From positions 10,292,001-10,356,000 of the forward strand of contig JAWMAR010000049.1 in assembly GCA_036785375.1 (NCBI GenBank): 64,000 bases of DNA, in the 5' to 3' direction. This document shows, one piece after another, positions 18,991 to 42,943 of this stretch; position 1 is the stretch's first letter; each line of letters starts with the position of its first letter. A program made the translations under genes and the position numbers. The stretch is from Leucoraja ocellata. Lineage: Eukaryota. A model generated the notes under the pieces. The model did no database searches. It was not told the origin of the DNA and was given only the letters and a program-made list of their open reading frames with translations.

Positions 18991-19071
18991 TCAAAATCCA
19001 AACACTCCCCCAACTGTGGATGCAATGACGACCCCCAGCACCACACAGCATATAATGATCATGATCTTCTT
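18991..19071 (-). CDS. STX1A: Terminal exon 10b, canonical STX1 transmembrane domain and stop
   Basis: ctacag|AAG AAG ATC ATG ATC ATT ATA TGC TGT...TTT TGA; encodes KKIMIIICCVVLGVVIASTVGGVFGF*. Confidence 0.95.
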   Translation of the reverse strand, partial: KKIMIIICCVVLGVVIASTVGGVFGF

Positions 19072-21589
19072 CTGTAGCCCCCACATCCAAGCAGCATGAC
19101 AGGAAGAAGAGGAGAAAGTGTTAGTTCTGTAACTTTATTTACATTTAAATGATTCAGGATTTTTACAGAATGGAAGATGAAGCAATTCCAAAACAGATTA
19201 TAACCTTCCCTTTACATCAGTAAATGTTCTTATTGATATCTTCTTGTTGCAGGCTCGTCATTTTAACAAACCATTAACATTTCAGAACCTACTTTGAAAC
19301 ATAAGTCCCTCACATTTCAAACCTCCCGCACACCACACATCTCTCGGTATAAATAGGACACCACATATTCCATCACCACACTCCATCATATTCAGAAGCC
19401 ATCCTCACATTAGACAACTGCTCACATTCAATGCAAACTACAACAACAATGCTCCCACTTCATATTTTAAATCTCTCTTCTTAACAAGTACCTGACATTA
19501 AACACTCGCTCATGACATTTTTTGTAAATTTAAGTAGCTGGAAACAGCTGGGGAGGTAGAGAGTATGATATCTTCTTTCGACCTTTAATCTCAATGTAAA
19601 ATGTTTACACATTATTGAAGTTAGTTAATAAGTTTTTGACTGGCATCTTACCCTAATCTACTTTTTGCTGTCAAATTTGTATTTACAGTAATTGAAAAAC
19701 TTTGCAAAAGGAGCAGATTTTGGGAGAAAGAAGAGTATTCAAAATCCAATTTGGTTCAATCCTGAGTTGATAATATAATACAATGTTAAGAGAGGGGTGT
19801 GATTCCAAGTGTGTGCACAAAGAGGTGTAAAGTGCATGTCCGCATGTAAGAATGTTATTTACTTTCAATTCACTTACCATCAGCAGGCATTGAACTACAT
19901 AGGGACACATTTTAGATTCCCTGTTGAGATGTCTGTTAAAATCTAGGCTATAATATGGACCTAAACTATCTTCTATTCCTTGTGGCCAATGGAATCATCA
20001 GCTTCTCCAACTTCTGTCAGTCTGTTATAGCAGCTCAACTATCCCATATAGTCCCTCACTCTTCACCTCACACACACCTTGTGAAAGGGTTGTAAACGTT
20101 TTAACAGTAGAGCGGCCATAAAATATACAATCATGCAAAACAGCAAGCCACATCTTCAGAAATGGATGAGGAGAAAGTGAGAAATGTAATGCTGATACAA
20201 GAAGAACCGAGTAAAATCTAGAAAGGTACAACTCTCCTGTAGAACTATGGCACTATCCACATGTATCACATAGTGCTGTAGTTTTACAGCTGGATAATAC
20301 TGTTCCAGTAACACATTCATTAGCAGTAGTGGAGACACGGGAGAGGATCCATGCTGTAACACAATACATTTCTCCCATGGCAATAAGGCTCATTTATTTT
20401 TGGGGAGAAATCGTATTACTTTTATTGCATAGTGTATTTATGTTTTTCCTTGGAGTCTATTATTATTCATTTTTTTGGGGTTAAATAACAGCACTTAGTT
20501 TGTATCACAGTTGATAATTTCTTTCAGATCAACAAATTATTGTATTTTTATTATTTTGCCTTTGTCATTATTTCCTTTACAAGAATTGTTGTCAGTATTA
20601 CATATGCCCATATATAATATGTGATAAAAGAAATGTTGACAATTTATAATTTTCCTTTAGTATGGTGAAAAACAAGCAGATAGAATGGAACTATAAACTG
20701 CAATGAATTATTTTATTTTGTGTTGTAAAATTAAATATTGAATATAATTTTGCGTTTGATGTAAATGCATTACCCTGTGCAATATCAGTTAGAGAAGGCA
20801 TGATAAGCCTCAGTGTCCAGGATTGATATGGAAAGAAAAACAGTCAGGAGTATCACCTCTGATCACTACCCACAGACCTCTGCAGAAGTTCATGCAAGTA
20901 ATCAGGAACTAAGGATGTAAAGCCAGACACAATGACAAAAGGACACATATGCAGACCTATTCAAGAGATATTGAAAGGAAGTTCGCTTTCATTGTATACT
21001 TGCCTTTTTGGCAAGGGTTTATAATTTGATGAAAAATACCAGATCTCTTAGACTTTTATTATAATCATAGCCAGAATCATTCTCAAAACCGTTCAGACAA
21101 CACCAATGTAAGTGTCGAGGTTAGGAGGAAAGCAAAACACTGCAGATGCAGGTTCTGATTGTATTTAAGTTATGCAGGGCCTATTGTGTTGAAATTTGTG
21201 AGTGTCGTAAATTTAGATCTATATTTTTTCCTGTAGAACTGTTCACGACTGCAAATTCATACATGGCAATATCCACACTCGTTCCTGCATCTATACATGA
21301 ACATGACCATGTTTTTATATGTTTTTCTTTACATGTATCTGCATGTTTGATTATTTCCAAAATTCACATGGATCTGTGATTTCTTTTCCTGCTCTTTAAT
21401 TTTTTTTATTTTTTTTATGGGCTTAGTGACTTGGATTTTCCCAAGAAGATGGCAGGAATTTCTCATTGTAACTTATGATACTCATGCAAACATGAAACTT
21501 TGAAAAGGAATGCCTGTGGATTCATTCACTGTGATGTTTGTACAGTTTCTTGGGGAGTTGATCAAGTAGGGAGGTTAGTACCTGACAAA

Positions 21590-25372: not shown

Positions 25373-26160
25373 CCAAAATTCTCAGTGTCCTTCCGAATGC
25401 TCCTTATCTACTTTGAGCTGCCTGGATGGGCTCAGAAATCTTATGTTGCATTTTTTTTTTCTCCATAGGAGGAGGATATATTAAGTCACTGAACGGGCAC
25501 AACAAGATCTGGAAATTAAATGGGTGAGTTCTATTCCAACATTCATTTAGTAAAATTTGCTTGGCCATTTGCAGAGAGAATGACGAATAGTTTGAGAGAG
25601 ACATTGACAAAGGGAAAAGAGGGAGAAGAGTGGAAAGAAAGACTGAAAGACAGGATAGAAAAAAAGGTAAAGTAGCAAGATGGGAAAGAGAGAGGAAGGG
25701 AATGGAGAGTAATTGATTTTAAAATTATTTATAAAAATAGAAAAATCGCTGCAGAACTTCACCTGAATTCATCGTGAACTAATAAGTTTGTAAAATCATG
25801 GATCATATTCTGCTAAGGCAAGATGCAAACCAATAATGCTTCTTAAGATTATACACATTGAAAGTAAACTAAAATGATAAATAAAAGAGTGTTGCTTGAA
25901 TCCTGATGTTGCTCTTCAGCTTATGGAGATGCCAAAGCAAGCGAGGTCCGCACACAAGAGGAGAAGTCAGACCTGCAAGAATCATGCTCTTGGTGCCTGT
26001 AAGCAGCCCCTCCAGGAAAATCCTAGGTGTTGGCAAAATGAAATGGAGGTGTCCAGGAATGATGAGTTGTCGTCTTTCCTTTTCACACAAGCATACATGG
26101 AACAACAGCCCAGCTTTAGTCTCAGTCAGGATGATTCGGTGGGTCATGCACTTTCGAGCA

Positions 26161-26238
26161 TTAACTGAGAGACACAGCCAAAGCAATGATGATAATCAAC
26201 AGTACTACTGCAATGCATATTCCTATAAAGATCATTTT
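26161..26238 (-). CDS. STX1A: Alternative terminal exon 10a encoding a second transmembrane anchor
   Basis: tgttttcttcccttcccacag|AAA ATG ATC TTT ATA GGA ATA TGC...CTC AGT TAA; phase 0; encodes KMIFIGICIAVVLLIIIIALAVSLS*. Not in the ORF track because it is too short. Confidence 0.82.
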   Translation of the reverse strand, partial: KMIFIGICIAVVLLIIIIALAVSLS

Positions 26239-26689
26239 CTGTGGGAAGGGAAGAAAACAGTTTGGTGAGGCTCAGCATGCAAATACGCACATCACACAAA
26301 GAAACTGCAGTAGCAACTAAAACATTCAAAATGTGATGCAAATTTCTGGCTGACAACTGGGCATATGTTACACACTGGAATAATACATTCAAAGTCATGA
26401 CAGGAGACCAAACATGTCCCCACATATCTATGGCTCAAGGTTGGATAATGTTGGATGGCCAATTGAATTATGAGATAAAACCATGGCAGCACATGTGATG
26501 GGACTGTGGCAGTGTGTTCAGAGCACTGTAGTCCCCACAGAGCATCTCAGATTTTTTTCCAATAAAGAACCTTTAGAATGAGGTCTTACGACGTTTACTT
26601 TCAGCATGAAGATTCAGACTGCTACTAGAGTGCTTGGGTGTCAAGTTAGGGAAAGTAGCTTTTAGTTAGGATGGAGTCCCATCTTGCTA

Positions 26690-27068
26690 CTTTATAGAGA
26701 TGTGTAAGATCATGAGATGAATAGATCGGGTAGATGCACAAAGTCTCTTGCCCAGAGAAGGTGAATTGAGGACCAGGGGGCATAGGTTTAAGGTGAAGGG
26801 GAAACGATTTAATACGAATCTGAGGGGTAACTTTTTCACACAAAGGTTGGTGGATGTATGGAGCAAGCTGACAGAGGAGGTAGTTGAGGCAGGGACTATC
26901 CCAACATTTAAGAAACAGTTAGACAGGGACATGGATGTGACAGGTTTGGAGGGATATGGACCAAATGCTGGCAGGTGAGACTAGTGTAGCTGGGACATGT
27001 TGGCCGGTGTGGGCAAGTTGAGCCGAAGAGCCTGTTTCCACACTGTATCACTCTATGATTCTATGACT
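26690..27068 (+). mobile_element. CR1-type LINE 3' end
   Basis: ORF RTRGHRFKVKGKRFNTNLRGNFFTQRLVDVWSKL...FKKQLDRDM. Confidence 0.9.
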
Positions 27069-29320: not shown

Positions 29321-31780
29321 AGAGTTTTTATATTCACACCCTATACCATCAAGGCTGCAATGATGGGAAATAATAATTTCTCGGTGTCCTACTACCTGTA
29401 TATCCTAGAGACTAATTCTGACATAGTTGTAAAAATTAACCAGAAGTTTCTCTGCTTATTTTCATCAGCCCAATTAGGTGAATTTCTCCAAACCAACTAA
29501 AAAATAGTAGATTTAATTTGAGAGAACTATCACCAATTTCCACCCACAAAACCACATCTTATCCCTACACACATACATGCAAGCAGAGCTGATTAGCAGT
29601 GATTATGTTAGTTAAGGATGGCACTTCAATTTATGCTCATAGAAATCTAATTTTTTTTTCATTTTTAATAGATCACATTTTTAATTAAACTAACTACGAA
29701 GCTATTGGCCGCACACTGATGAAATGATTCAGTCAAGGCTATAAAAGATATGTTTATTGACTGTATCAGATTCCCAGAGATGGAAGAGTGGACCCATATT
29801 AAAAATTTCTATTCTGATGAAAAATCCATTTTAAATGGTATTAATAAAAATGCCCTAAAGTTATTTCTTGGTGTAGTTGATGAAAAAGAGATAAACGTTC
29901 TGTTCTACTGCCCAACTGCCCTTCATTGAAGATTTTAATTTAAACAGGCTTGCACAATGAACCACCAAAATTAAACCTTGGGCATGGTTGCCTGATTGCC
30001 TAACCCAAACTGATCAGTAATTTATGTTCTAACATATGTAACAAACAATAGAATTTGGTTTTTAATCTAAAACAGGCTGCAGCTTATGAATTGTATTTGC
30101 TTATTTTGAATTGTTAATTAACAAGCTAGCATGTTTTTAGTAACAGAAGGCAGAACACTGGAAGAACTCAGTGGGTCATGCAATGTCCGTGGATGCAAGA
30201 GGGTAAGTAAATATCTCGGGTTGGGATTCTACATCAAATCCAGACCTGCCGGACTCTTTGAGTTCTGTTTATCGATCCAGATTCCAGCATCTGCCATCTC
30301 CTTTGTCCTCTAACATTTCTTTATGTTTCAAACCCATTCCCCATAAGACAATTTTTTAATCAATTAATTAATGAATGATCAGGCTCAGCAGCATTCTTAC
30401 CATTCAGTGACATTTGGTGAACTCACACCTATCAACAGAGTTTTATTTCGATTTGAAGTACATGTATCCTTGATTGCTTGCATTAGAATAAATGGCAATA
30501 ATGCTACTGTAATAGATGTATGCGAATCAGAATGATTAAATTATAATAAATACACTATGGATATACGGATTGTTGGAATAGATGAAAATATGATAAATTA
30601 GTGGCATTAATTGGATTGTATGGAAGCCAATTAAGTGAGGACAAAACTGAGGTAGATTTTGCTACGTGTAATCTTTAGCTTGATTGGCTCCAGATAGGTT
30701 GGGCTGGAATTAATATCAAGTAGCAGAATAAATGAGTTGAGATTGATTTGAGGTAGATTATAGTGGACAGATTTTAATAGAAATGATTCAATTATACTGA
30801 CTGCTTCTGCCCACATCTGCAGAATGAATATTTCTTATCTGTTGATTGTAAAACTTCAAAAATGGCCCAGACTAAGTGACCTAGTCCAAAACCAAAAATA
30901 ATTGAGCAGATTTTAAAATAAACCAGTCAGCTCTTGCCCAGGGCTAATGCAGGAAGTAAAATAATAATAATGCTGTAACAACAAGGAAGCTTAATCGAGG
31001 CACGTGAGATATGTGGGTTTTTTTGTTGTTGGATGGAGACCTTGCCTTACACAAGGCCTTGACAACTGGTGAAAATGGGTGATACATACAGTGGCCAAGA
31101 AAATGGAAAATAAAACAGAAGTTGACAGCTGTGTTGTGCTGGCCTGTTATATACAGTTGGGCAAATAACATTGGATTGATTTTATTCAAAATGATTAAAT
31201 TTAGATAGATTATAACAGAGTGAATTATATCAGGATAGGTTTATTTATAAGACACTGCAGCGGTATTGATTTGACAAGGACATATTAAATTCCCCGATGG
31301 GAGGGATGCAATAAATAAATACTACTGGACAAATTGCACCATCTGAGATTAGATCCTACTCATTGATTTATATTGGAGATAGATTTAAACAGGCAATGCA
31401 TCATTTAGGCATGATGGATGTCAGGGGTTATGAGGAAAAGGCAGGAGAATGGGGTTAGGAGGGAGAGATACATAAGGAATATGTACAGGGAATAAATTGC
31501 ACTGAATTAGATGCTGTTAATATTAGCAAAGTCTCAAGATAGATGGCAAGAGGAAAATAATGGTTGATTGGTTTCTCCTCTGTTCTCCACCATGTCATTG
31601 TATGATTGTTAAGTCACTGTGTGCAAGTCCTGCCTCACAATTCTTCCAATCCCTCTGTAAATGGAGCTGGCAAAATGTCACATTATATTAGCTTGTATAA
31701 ATGACAGATGGTGTATTGGCTGCTTTTGGGATCAGAGGTATGAATGAAAATGGCCTTTCCAGACAATGGGCATGAAAGAC

Positions 31781-31996
31781 TGTGTCGGAAAGAACTGCAG
31801 ATATTGGTTTAAATCGAAGGTAGCCACAAAATGCTGGAGCACCCCAGCGGGACAGGCAGCATCTCTGGAGAGAAGGAATGGGTGACGTTTTGGGTTAAGA
31901 TCAGTCTGAAGAAGGGTCTTGACCCGAAATGTCACCCATTTCTTCTCTCCAGAGACGTTCCCTATCCCACTGAGCAACTCCAGCATTTTGTGTCTC
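31781..31996. mobile_element. Penelope-derived foldback element, 12-bp TSD, hammerhead-like core
   Basis: GGCATGAAAGAC duplicated at 31769-31780 and 31997-32008; CTGAAGA-A-GGGTC-TT-GACCC-GAAA-TGTC at 31906-31933. Confidence 0.85.
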
Positions 31997-32975
31997 GGCA
32001 TGAAAGACCCACTGAATGTAGTAAATGTCAATACTAAGAAGTGTACGCATCTCTCCCAGGGTCCCACACCAAAAATGTTGCTTGACCTCATATTATTCTT
32101 AACCGACACTCTTTAACATACATCACAGAATCGGCTGATGCATGTGTTCTCTGCATCACACACCACTCATCACGAACTATACCTCGCAGTGTGTTACTGT
32201 GCAATGTTGTGAATAGATTAACATATTCACAAAGGTAAGCTTACATCATCGCCCAATTTTCATGTATCTATTTGAGATGTCAGATCACTTTCTTCACTTA
32301 GTTTTTACTTCTACTTTCATCAAAAAGATGTTCTGATTTTTTACAATGTGGGACAAATAATAATTGCTGAAACATAGTTTCACCCTGGCAAACAACAGCA
32401 ATGAGATGGGGAAAGTGATTGCAAGGTTTATAGTGTACATTATGATCTAAGTTTACATCTAAGTTATAGAGAGTTATATGCAGCACAGGATCGCATGCTC
32501 CTGGACGCTATTTTTAACGTGCCTCTAGAATATCTTGTTTCTGATTTATAAATGTTTGAGTTACACCTTTTAAATACGTGAAAAACTGTGCAGCAACATA
32601 ATGCAATGTGTGCACTTCTGAACTGTCGAAATTTCCTGAGGTGAAGAAAGCAGTTACATTTCTGTGAAAGACTCACAGTCCCAGAGCCAATTATAATATG
32701 TGAAGCGTACGGCCCTTATAATTGTTATCACTGACAGTCATAAAGCCAGTCGTGTGTGCAGAATATATAACCCTCATAAATCTTATTACAGCATGGGGCC
32801 CCCTCGGTGGGAGGGAAGTCGACCAACTGATGGAGTAACAATTATAGACACACACGTGCACAATGAGATGAATACAGGGTTGCAAAACTTTTTTTTTGTA
32901 CGGTCTCTTGTGATGGAATTGGGGACGCACAGTGAGGTCATCACGCATGCAGGGTTGTTGACGTGCACTACTCAC

Positions 32976-33086
32976 CCGGCGCGCTTTACTCTGGTACTTA
33001 ACCGCCTTTTTTGTGTCAGACACTGCCCTCTCTACGTAGTCAACTGAGTGCTCGACGTTGTATTCGATCCTGTCTATCATCTCTCC
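32976..33086 (-). CDS. STX1A: Exon 9b: canonical STX1 C-half of the SNARE motif
   Basis: gcccag|GGA GAG ATG ATA...CGC CGG|gtgagt; 111 nt; encodes [37 protein letters not shown]. Confidence 0.97.
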
Positions 33087-33162
33087 CTGGGCATCGAGGA
33101 AAGAGCAGACACGCATGAAAGTAACAGAGGTGCTTCGGCGGCCATTCTCCCGAGTCACTTAC

Positions 33163-33273
33163 CCGCCGGCTGGTACTCTTAAAATTAACTGCTTTTTTTG
33201 TGTTCTCCTTCGCGTCGCCTATGTAATCCGTTGCATTAACAACGTTCCTCTCAATGCTGTTGACCACATCACC
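33163..33273 (-). CDS. STX1A: Alternative exon 9a: divergent, STX2-like C-half of the SNARE motif
   Basis: ttctccttctgtttcag|GGT GAT GTG...CGG CGG|gtaagt; 111 nt, phase 0-0, no stops; encodes [37 protein letters not shown]. Confidence 0.85.
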
Positions 33274-36192
33274 CTGAAACAGAAGGAGAAAGATTCACTC
33301 TTCCCGAAAAGCCCCTGGTATCCCACGGAATTATATCACAAGCATCAAACTGAACTGAACATATCTGACAGCATTGTCCTTGAAGGGTGGGGGGCAATGT
33401 GAAGTGAAGCGTCAAAGAGGCCCCACACTGCCACCCTGCATGCTTTTCTGTTGCAAAGAGCCATTCCTCTATTCATGTGGGCACCACTAATGGCTTATTT
33501 GAATAGCAACACAGCATAAAAGCCTTACCCCACAATAACATAATGAGGCACTTATTCTCCCAAGGACTTACTCATCAGAACATCCAATAACTCCCACATA
33601 GAAACCTGATGAAATCAACCAAGGTATGGGTTGGTTTTGAGTCTCCAGATAATCTTCTTGTTTACCAAATGGAGCATTTTCAGATTGTCATCTTTGCTGT
33701 TCAGGGATTTTAAACTGGAATGAATTTCCTCAGAGAATTTCACTGGAGAAGCAGGGGTCTCTGTAAATATTTCTTGTCCCTCTCCCCCCCCCCCCCCCCA
33801 AATTTCCTCAGGTGCAAAGTTCATGGATAAGAAGCAAAGAGCTGTTTTGTTCAGCCTCCGTGAGGTGCCATCCTGAATACTTTGGGAATAATAGAGTTGC
33901 TTCCTGACATTCCACCTTCCCATCTGTCTCCCAGTGTCCCAAAACCCTTCTTGAATGCAGCCGACATATTTAAAATACCAATTTCGCCCTGACCACCAAC
34001 ACCAATTAAGCTTTTAGCTGCTGTTATCTGTTACTATGGGTGTCAGAGGTTACGGGGCGAAGGCAGGAGAGAGATAGATCAGTCAAGATCGAATGGCGGA
34101 GTAGACTTGATGGGCCAAATGGCCTAATTCTAAAGGTTCCTAACATGAGGCTATCTGCTTGAATAATCTCCCCCTTTAGTCAACACCAGGCTTCCATAAG
34201 ATCTCAGCACGCTGTGTGCGTGGATCCTGTCCAATGTTTGGCATTGGAGATCATGGTGGGTTGATGTGAACTGAGGACAGGGTGGAATGGCAGGCTAAAT
34301 TACCCTTGCTGATGTTGGCTATTTCTTATTCATGCACCAACTAAGATTCTGACTCCTGGTAGCTTGAGAATGAGCGCAGCAGTGAGATTGCTTCCTCAGC
34401 CTTGTCCCTGGACTCATCATATTCCAATAGTGAGTTATTATCTTTACCCAGCAGCTCTGGTGTAAGTCACAACAGATGAGAGAGCAGTGGGGGGGGGGGG
34501 GGTTTCGTGTTCAGATAGGCCAAGAAGCCAAGCACATCTTACATTGCTGCACCTTTGATTTTCTTTACACGCTTTACCACGTTTCAAGAGTCCAATATCA
34601 TGCGTGTGGTTGGAAGTACATGCAATCATGCAAAGCTGCACTGTTACTGCATGCTACAGAATGCGTTACCTGCAGGACTCCACCGTCCAGTCCAGGGTAT
34701 TAGCAGCAGGAGAAAACAGAGGCTGTTACCAGCAATAGGAAGAATAGACTCGCAGTCAGAGCCTCACGGTGAATTGTGAATTAATGCAACAGAGCTCTTT
34801 GCAACTCTTATTAGATCTTTGCTCTTCTTGACTTTGATATCATTTCCCATACGTCACAGTCCCTTCAGTCCACACATCAGATACCTCGTTTCTAACCTTT
34901 GGACAGAAGGTTGCTGAGATGGGGGCAGAAAGCGAGGGAAGGGAAGGAAGGGGGCAGACACTTGGAGTGAGAAGTCTTTGCAAGTGGTTAGATGGTGTGA
35001 TCAACAAATAGAAGTGGGATGGTGGGGGACTGGCAGTGCAAGGACAGAGGCAGCTCCAGGAATGTCTTGGGGGCACTTTACGAAGCAAAGATTCTGCCGG
35101 GGAATCAGCTGACCTGCCCTTGGCTCTGTGGTAGCACGTTTGGTTCTACGTGAGGCATTATAGAGCTTCACCTATCCTCCGCCAAGGATCGTCTCAAACA
35201 ATAAACAGGAAGTTGATTGGCAACTTTCACAAAAAGGACAGTGCCTCAAATCAGAGACGAGGGATGTGAAAGAAGAGGAGGGCTGGGAATGGGAAGAGCC
35301 ACAGCTATATGGTACTGATCATGTACAGGGAGATTACTGCACCACTTTGAGAAGCAGGTGATATCTCTTGTTTGCAGGATTGATGGTGAGACCATGATGG
35401 AAGAACTAATTCACTTCCCAGTCTAGTGTGGTGGATCAGTGGTTAGCTGGGTTGGATCACTGAAAATCAAGTGTACAATGCCTCACATGACCAACGAGGC
35501 AAACTCCCTTTCCAGTGCATATAAAGTCATGCAGTCCAGGTTCCCTCAAGTCTTGTCATCTTGGGGTACTGGTAAAAGGAGACTACTTAGACTTGCCATT
35601 GGCAACTTTGGAGGGTATTAGTGGTTATCAGAGAAACCTAGAAGGAAGGTGCAGCGTAGTCTAAAAACTAAACACATGGTCAATGGGTTACACGCCAGTA
35701 AATTACATTTTAGGTTGGCTTTCTGTGTATTTTTGAATGTTAAGTGTGTCAAGGAATATAGGCTTGGATAGGAGAGTGAACAGTCTTGGATAGGAGAGTG
35801 GACAGTCATATCCTATTGACAATTGGCACATACTCACAGTACTCTACGACCTACTCTTGCTTTAAGGGATTGCTCTTGGTCTTATGCTCTTGTTTTATAG
35901 GTTATGCTCTTAAACAGAGATTTTTTTTTCCGTGCAACACGCAGAATGCTTGAACACTAGTCAATGAGCAGAGACTTCAAAAACTGAAGTGATAATTCTT
36001 CAACGCACAATTCTTGTCGAATCAAAGTTATTAAGGCAGTTAAAATCAGCAATAACAAGGAATCATCAAGTTTTGTTTTACACTCAATCCACGATGACAG
36101 AGTAAGATGGACCTTTTCTCGGTTTAGATAACTGGTAGTTCCTGCCACACAGATTCAAAATGAGATCTTTCTCTGTTTGATCCACATCTTAC

Positions 36193-36330
36193 CTGGCTTT
36201 CCACCAGCATTGCCATGTCCATGAACATATCGTGCAGCTCGCGAATACAGTTCTCCAGTTTGATGATCTCATGATGTCGCGTTTCAATCTCATTTAGAGC
36301 CTGCTTCGTGATGTTGGAATCCATTATGAT
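36193..36330 (-). CDS. STX1A: STX1A exon 8 (N-half of SNARE motif, ending at zero-layer Gln)
   Basis: tctcttctcttctcttag|ATC ATA ATG GAT...AGC CAG|gtaaga; 138 nt; encodes [46 protein letters not shown]. Confidence 0.97.
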
Positions 36331-42869: not shown

Positions 42870-42943
42870 CCCTGATGTGAAGATAGCAGGATTCCCACTC
42901 TCCAGCATGTCTTCCAGCTCCTCATTTGTGGTCGTTCTTCCAG
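42870..42943 (-). CDS. STX1A: STX1A exon 7 (linker / start of H3)
   Basis: attctag|CT GGA AGA ACG ACC ACA AAT GAG...TCA GGG|gtaagt; 74 nt, phase 1 to 0; encodes (T)[24 protein letters not shown]. Confidence 0.96.

Follow-up and report, generated by a model that had tools for sequence, protein, structure and literature searches.

Alternative C-terminal exons of syntaxins and the STX1A locus of Leucoraja ocellata

The closest described system is vertebrate STX3. The isoforms STX3A and STX3B have exons 1-8 in common (PMC11476516) and differ in the exons that follow. For the human gene the order 9A-9B-10A-10B is described, with exons 9A and 9B of 111 nt each lying 119 nt apart (PMC8373072). The b arm is STX1-like (PMC11476516, PMC8263458, PMC8373072), and STX3B is reported as retinal and STX3A as broadly expressed (PMC8263458). 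The exon events of STX2 and STX3 were dated to Bilateria (PMC8373072). Among more distant systems, the anchor exons of worm syntaxin comprise neuronal and non-neuronal ones (PMC4946901), and SNAP-25, which is another gene, carries a duplicated alternative exon in its SNARE motif, 5a/5b (PMC2581893). Separation of splice isoforms after gene duplication, with paralogs keeping different arms as proposed here, is described in PMC4494069, the main text of which does not name syntaxins.

We analysed a stretch of 64,000 nt of L. ocellata DNA, called the window in the following. It contains the STX1A exons from exon 7 onwards (Table 1); the upstream exons before exon 7 are located outside the window on the same contig. 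A first-pass annotation of the window had proposed an alternative exon pair 9a/9b and had compared it to STX3A/STX3B. The pair is real, but its description was incomplete, since a matching pair of last exons, 10a and 10b, had been overlooked. The analogy to STX3 is in fact closer than was stated: common exons 1-8, two 111-nt exons encoding the SNARE motif's C-terminal half, a short intron between them and two anchor exons occur in the same order, 9a-9b-10a-10b. Unlike in STX3, the cassette here belongs to STX1A, its b arm gives the textbook neuronal form, and the 9a-9b intron has 76 nt instead of 119. Tissue pattern and coupling of the arms have been shown for STX3.

The cassette is real, ancient and alternative. 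Its anatomy, the coding constraint on 9a, the spread of 9a across jawed fishes and the agreement of the exon order with that of human STX3 are shown. We consider it probable (about 0.7) that 9a/9b and 10a/10b are paired C-terminal alternatives, spliced likely as 8-9b-10b or 8-9a-10a. The first form would be the canonical neuronal syntaxin-1A; in the second, the body of syntaxin-1A would be followed by a half-helix and an anchor of STX2/STX3A type.

Table 1. Features of the STX1A locus within the window (all on the minus strand)
Feature	Positions	Strand	Description	Basis
Exon 7	42870..42943	-	74 nt, constitutive	tblastn with P0004, ends set by splice-site context
Exon 8	36193..36330	-	138 nt, N-terminal half of SNARE motif, ends at zero-layer Q226	sequence match
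Exon 9a	33163..33273	-	alternative C-terminal half of SNARE motif, STX2/STX3A type	translation, splice sites, orthologues in 20 fish species
9a-9b intron	33087..33162	-	76 nt	candidate branch points 41 and 47 nt into the intron (window 33122, 33116)
Exon 9b	32976..33086	-	canonical neuronal C-terminal half of SNARE motif, residues 227-263	sequence match to syntaxin-1A
TGCATG, RBFOX-type motif	32946..32951	-	25 nt past 9b donor	motif scan
TGCATG, RBFOX-type motif	26276..26281	-	43 nt ahead of 10a acceptor	motif scan only
Exon 10a	26161..26238	-	alternative last coding exon, 25-residue membrane anchor, one cysteine	joined to 9a in RefSeq models
Exon 10b	18991..19071	-	canonical STX1 membrane anchor, cysteine pair	21 positions equal to bird STX1A

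The assignment of the host gene to STX1A held when the 46 residues of exon 8 were compared: named STX1A proteins matched at 43-46 positions (shark 46, bird 44), STX2-type proteins at 34-35, and STX3-type proteins at 30/44. Shark orthologues with identical exons 7-8 carry the name STX1A, and S240 is also present in named bird STX1A. The distinction from STX1B follows the names of the shark orthologues, and STX1A rather than STX1B is the probable assignment. Four single-exon claudins were found at about 1.7 Mb from a second copy of the locus on contig C8; they may be a sign of synteny with the human STX1A region.

The anchor encoded by 10a resembles one STX2 anchor (14/25) and gave no simple alignment to STX3 10A. 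Downstream of the 10a stop codon, positions 25872-26160 (minus strand) match the anchor-less tail of the STX1A models X1/X2 of Stegostoma (30/72 residues, E 3e-13). This conserved stretch may be 3' UTR or an extra exon like exon 11A of STX3, which leads to soluble STX3S. The 10b acceptor (19072-19125, minus strand) shows a G-rich stretch ahead of the AG, with a pyrimidine tract and a strong branch-like motif farther upstream. SINE-like repeats were seen at positions 31822-31995, 26700-27060, 31400-31470 and 34050-34130, and one pair of them, about 1 kb past 9b, is inverted (86-nt arms, 80%).

Sequence, spread and constraint of exon 9a

As the first-pass annotation had described, 9a and 9b are phase-0 exons of 111 nt at a distance of 76 nt, and their positions and translations were reproduced. 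Both have intact, strong splice sites, with pyrimidine-tract AG acceptors and GTRAGT donors. The peptide of 9b is the canonical STX1 sequence (36/37 compared to residues 227-263 of syntaxin-1A), and all its 25 PDB matches were syntaxin SNARE motifs with syntaxin-1A on top. The 9a peptide is identical to 9b at only 16/37 residues. It aligned to the same residues 227-263 of syntaxin-1A with an E value of 1.3e-4 in a search of 177,635 PDB sequences, and the match is therefore not due to chance. An assembly artefact or a recent copy was ruled out: the two exons share 64/111 nt, and both are present in the second assembled copy of the locus on C8, with identical exon sequences and 3 differences in the 76-nt intron. 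This copy (G000:C8:809000-950600) is near-identical over the entire STX1A locus and likely represents the other haplotype; several further genes are likewise duplicated in the assembly.

Exon 9a had been called hidden, which does not hold for databases: for sharks, Narcine, Latimeria and sturgeons, isoforms with 9a are already present among the RefSeq models. Among 142 STX1A-type models (leaving out mite model P0015 and the truncated P0010), 15 have 9a alone, 11 have 9a and 9b, and 116 have 9b alone. All 26 models with 9a come from fishes. With the Hucho model P0134, 9a is known in 20 fish species, namely seven elasmobranchs, the coelacanth, four sturgeons, the bowfin and seven teleosts, and the closest 9a is that of the ray Narcine (31/37). 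In tetrapod STX1A 9a was found in 0/114 models, which are protein models rather than genomes, mostly from birds and none from a mammal. From these models we infer that tetrapod STX1A lost 9a. Fish entries named "syntaxin-1A isoform X" (XP_069766522.1, XP_005986912.1, XP_048413012.1 and others) carry the orthologous 9a, and some also 10a. The isoforms X1 and X2 of Stegostoma differ solely in 9b versus 9a. These entries are automatic models, and our literature search, which extended to journals outside subscription, found no paper that names or tests the fish STX1A cassette. STX1A is also not named in the main texts and searched supplements of three duplicated-exon surveys, PMC9741552, PMC4494069 (with the exception of one supplement file) and PMC8373072. 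The isoforms are already present in automatic fish annotations, and the type of event is already known from STX3.

The activity of selection on 9a was visible in a contig of sequencing run X4, which comes from a relative and differs from the window at 11 positions over 9a and the intron, 10 of them itemized. All 6 itemized differences within 9a are silent third-position changes (6/24 silent sites versus 0/87 replacement sites, p 6e-5); if the single remaining difference is counted as a replacement, p is 3.5e-4. Layers +2, +3, +6 and +8 are invariant in 17 aligned 9a sequences. These silent-only changes and invariant layers bear out the purifying selection that had been proposed for 9a. With 4 changes in 76 nt the intron is even more conserved than the silent sites of 9a (6/24, p 0.012), and none of the itemized differences falls between intron positions 27 and 52.

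Two contigs gave hints on splicing. Record 8 of X4 (241 nt) and record 24 of run X7 (153 nt) both break off at position 33272, and beyond this position their letters do not fit the intron. Position 33272 is the expected left-shifted place (one shared letter) of the joint between exons 8 and 9a. In addition, a bubble contig at k=31 for the paths 8-9a and 8-9b would have precisely the length of 241 nt (28+111+76+26) and the far end at 33061 that the X4 contig shows. We infer from this contig geometry that exon 8 was spliced to 9a in two runs, the joints being deduced from contig ends and X4 being classed as "probably DNA". Upstream joining of each exon 9 to exon 8 is indicated by the X4/X7 geometry and by the RefSeq isoform pairs.

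In the X4 contig, 9a is followed by the 76-nt intron and then by 9b, without a branch at the donor of 9a. With this intron retained, a transcript would be frameshifted and would reach a stop codon with 64 nt of 9b still to come. Exon 9a could therefore be mainly regulatory or truncating, with retention of the short intron leading to a degraded transcript or to an anchor-less soluble syntaxin like STX1C or STX3S. Besides the retention in X4, the conservation of the intron beyond silent sites fits this explanation, as do the shark models P0007, P0008, P0013 and P0014, which stop a few residues into the intron, and the models P0009, P0012, P0191 and P0192 with other anchor-less tails. Human STX1C is described to depart just past the same glutamine (bioRxiv 10.1101/162958). 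We nevertheless regard a mainly regulatory role as unlikely: the amino-acid constraint spans the entire exon, as fits a membrane-anchored protein, and 10a is a conserved partner anchor that follows 9a in 6 models (Narcine 2, Latimeria 1, sturgeons 3), which cover three fish classes. Moreover, a steric block between 9a and 9b would also yield intron retention as a by-product.

A splice from 9a to 10a was not seen in 4 runs; the depth on 10a was zero in all 4, and such coverage gaps are uninformative. The same applies to the raw RNA run X24 (about 6% read), with no depth on 9a, 9b or 10a, and to run X5, which contains 0.24 of the words but gave no coverage there. Exon 10b was left uncovered as well. 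Of the 15 models that have 9a but not 9b, 9 end in read-through or other tails instead of the 10a anchor. Because X4 retains the intron, 10a is without depth and many 9a models are without 10a, it is the database models that point to a productive 9a-10a mRNA.

Origin of the exon pair

STX2 (epimorphin) has an a-type exon 9 with N231, N232 and K248-E249-E250, and one of its alternative anchor exons is similar to 10a. The first-pass annotation had compared 9a to human STX2 with about 22/37 identical residues. This count was reproduced with model P0136, the exon-9 peptide of which equals that of human STX2 in a supplement table of PMC8373072, but 9b scores 25/37 to this peptide, so the 22/37 of 9a by itself is no proof of STX2-likeness. 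We count 9a as STX2-like because of the shared N231 and K248-E249 and because of the tree described below. Raw identity of 9a is 13-15 to STX3A and 16 to 9b; 9a is thus not nearer to STX3A than to 9b. Near the membrane (positions 256-261), 9a is more derived than STX2.

A tree of 30 vertebrate exon-9 peptides, without invertebrates, Amia and Scyliorhinus, separated {9b, STX3B} from {9a, STX2, STX3A} with a support of 99/97. This placed 9a with STX2, as had been proposed, and with STX3A. In a wider tree, which kept Amia and Scyliorhinus and included six invertebrate rows, the matching branch had a support of 93/92, and the invertebrates were on the b side. The AU test rejected a single clade of 9a and 9b (p-AU 0.002 and 0.003) and a single clade of 3A and 3B (p-AU 0.027 and 0.031). 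The 9a sequences did not form a single clade. The trees are built on 37 columns with near-frozen b-type rows and two STX3 sources; they include no STX1B, STX4 or lamprey row, and their STX2-type rows are unnamed. Within these 37 columns, the grouping fits a common origin of 9a/9b and the STX3 exons. The a/b split of the tree and the rejected duplication inside STX1A suggest that the cassette is likely older than the split of STX1A and STX3.

The cassette would thus have a single origin before STX1A and STX3 separated. Both arms would then have been kept by STX3 and fish STX1A, STX2 would have kept only an a-type exon 9, and tetrapod STX1A would be without 9a. STX1B is not known to have more than the b arm. 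The STX2-type paralog of L. ocellata on contig C281, which unlike the 9a gene has one exon 9 and a different N-terminal body, carries an a-type exon with its anchor exon about 0.9 kb further on, and no b-type exon 9 was found there within 40 kb.

A functional 9a could also stem from an own duplication inside STX1A or from conversion from STX2, with the likeness to STX3 being convergence. Crustacean syntaxin-1 models (P0133, P0143) have repeated exon-9 copies on the b side of the tree, which suggests that this exon may have been duplicated more than once. An independent origin is also in line with the fast evolution of 9a, the short alignment and the resemblance of 10a to one STX2 anchor rather than simply to STX3 10A. 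Against this, the AU tests reject both the 9a+9b and the 3A+3B clade, exon order and phase are as in STX3, and the STX2/STX3 events are dated to Bilateria (PMC8373072), so that we consider such an origin highly improbable and prefer the single ancient cassette.

Some further syntaxin sequences were noted. In Armadillidium and Penaeus (P0133, P0143, P0135) each syntaxin-1 model has two exon-9 copies, and one copy of Armadillidium has N231 and K248 as in the vertebrate a type. In the mite model P0015 the repeated part of the gene is larger. Three queries of the assembly gave neither STX1B nor an intact STX3, which does not prove their absence. An STX3-like exon-6 piece is present in two broken copies, L041 (G000:C185:2916926-2917147) and C185:3237200. 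Should STX3 be absent from rays, STX3A could be replaced by the a form of STX1A. An intronless syntaxin fragment, L012 (G000:C368:1470338-1470661), has a short deletion in the exon-9 part and an anchor and adjoins LINE-like sequence; it is likely a processed pseudogene and presumably STX4-like. A single-exon syntaxin, which we assume to be of the STX11/19 kind, is present twice (L003-L007, G000:C125), and a partial, broken copy lies about 6-7 kb upstream of each.

Proposed splice choice and predicted properties of the two forms

Joint inclusion of 9a and 9b preserves the reading frame, because both exon lengths are multiples of three. Decay of a frameshifted transcript was therefore ruled out as the enforcer of exclusion. 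RNA structure was also rejected as its cause, since shuffled sequences fold at least as well as the 131 nt around the intron (z 0.39). A simple motif scan, used in place of a branch-point predictor, gave the two candidates listed in Table 1. A distance of 50 nt from donor to branch point is described as the steric limit (PMC5740500). In this lineage, the likely branch points at 41-47 nt from the 9a donor would fall below this limit, and we propose that 9a cannot join 9b for this reason. Such a block is not general, since the 9a-9b intron has 132-348 nt in three teleost-type models.

The longer teleost introns and the intact frame are consistent with a use of 9a and 9b without strict exclusion, or without coupling to 10a/10b, which would allow a syntaxin with a longer helix and all combinations of exons 9 and 10. 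Eleven of the 26 models with 9a contain 9b too. Most of these are genome-only predictions, and two are RefSeq X-isoforms (P0019, P0023); the RefSeq isoforms with both exons include Acipenser ruthenus and Arapaima. Mixed arms also occur, with 9b joined to 10a in P0006, P0023 and P0132. However, genome-only pipelines, from which the double models mostly come, also merge 9A and 9B of STX3 (P0165, P0173), and the STX3 pair is described as alternative (PMC11476516, PMC8263458). The X4 contig shows no branch at the 9a donor, and the candidate branch points are closer to the donor than the limit given in PMC5740500. We therefore think it quite improbable that the exons are used without exclusion or coupling, and favour the paired alternatives 8-9b-10b and 8-9a-10a.

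The position of two RBFOX-type motifs TGCATG (Table 1) may bear on this pairing. RBFOX2 peaks are described as enriched after included and before skipped exons (PMC10676425); by this rule, binding after 9b and before 10a would favour 9b and 10b together. The motif after 9b can be compared to SNAP-25, where RBFOX2 binds after the second Snap25 exon (PMC10676425). We propose that in neurons the b arm is favoured by an RBFOX-type factor that binds closely past 9b and closely ahead of 10a. The background of TGCATG in the window is 0.52 per kb, and the motif was found too ahead of the constitutive exon 8 and just past the 10a stop. A read-through peptide compatible with the motif follows 9b in 5/7 fish-type models (two sturgeons), 0/9 tetrapod models and 0/24 STX2-type models; the chance of such a peptide is about 3% per model, and this test is indirect and was picked after the motif was seen. 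Several bird, turtle and crocodile read-through models (P0030-P0040) have a fish-like trace after 9b with an altered methionine codon, which would fit a decay of TGCATG in amniotes.

The protein encoded by 9a has the features of a Qa-SNARE: exon 8 ends with the zero-layer Q226, and small or hydrophobic layer residues are kept in all 17 aligned 9a sequences. The heptad layers +1 to +8 of the skate 9a read V, I, V, A, I, A, T, A, as first annotated. With these core layers the a isoform would still zip into the SNARE bundle. D231, E234 and E238 of syntaxin are described to face synaptotagmin-1 (PMC11213007). By this definition, the claim that 9a loses two of the three acidic residues of the interface was correct. 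D231 is changed to N and E238 to V, and E234 is retained. All 17 sequences have N231 and no acidic residue at position 238, and 16 of them keep E234. Without D231, R232, Y235 and E238 the a isoform would be clamped less by synaptotagmin-1.

An engineered protein comes close to the a isoform. In the STX1A-2(Cter) chimera, the body is that of STX1A, and the residues from Q226 to 255, nearly the span of exon 9a, are of STX2 type (PMC10957171). In this chimera the primed pool (RRP) decreased from 0.5 to 0.2 nC, the release probability increased by 42% and the rate of spontaneous release 8-fold, and the EPSC was smaller with unchanged kinetics (PMC10957171). The triple mutant D231N/E234Q/E238Q is reported to retain evoked release (PMC11213007). 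In the chimera and in the point mutants alike, release evoked by calcium persists, and it is mainly clamping and priming that are lost. Since the kinetics of release are normal in the chimera, the earlier description of 9a as giving a "non-synaptic, constitutive-type" syntaxin goes too far. We predict a form that is less clamped, yet able to serve a synapse, with a smaller primed pool, more spontaneous fusion and calcium-evoked fusion still possible. Like STX3A, the a isoform might function in non-neuronal or immature secretory cells.

A wider reading, which we offer tentatively and hold to be somewhat doubtful, is that the vertebrate plasma-membrane syntaxins go back to a single ancestral gene, in which RBFOX drove the choice of either a tightly or a loosely clamped C-terminus, and that the arms were divided after the genome duplications. 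STX2 would have kept the a arm, STX3 and fish STX1A both arms, and in tetrapod STX1A the a arm would have disappeared along with the RBFOX site past 9b. Fishes would still make a natural unclamped syntaxin-1A, cut as in the laboratory STX1A-STX2 chimera. The difference between neuronal and general syntaxins would then go back to an ancient choice in splicing, the two outcomes of which were afterwards distributed over paralogs. The partition of a and b arms among paralogs, the coupling by RBFOX and the natural match to the chimera are worth testing. In fish models, stx1a has to be considered as more than one protein, and 9a provides a natural variant to probe how clamping is set by the part of the synaptotagmin-1 interface that syntaxin contributes.

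Unlike the chimera, the natural form also alters residues 256-263 and, likely, the anchor. Basic residues at positions 260-265 and anchor cysteines tune release. The 9a-10a form would have 3 basic residues at these positions versus 5, and one anchor cysteine versus two.
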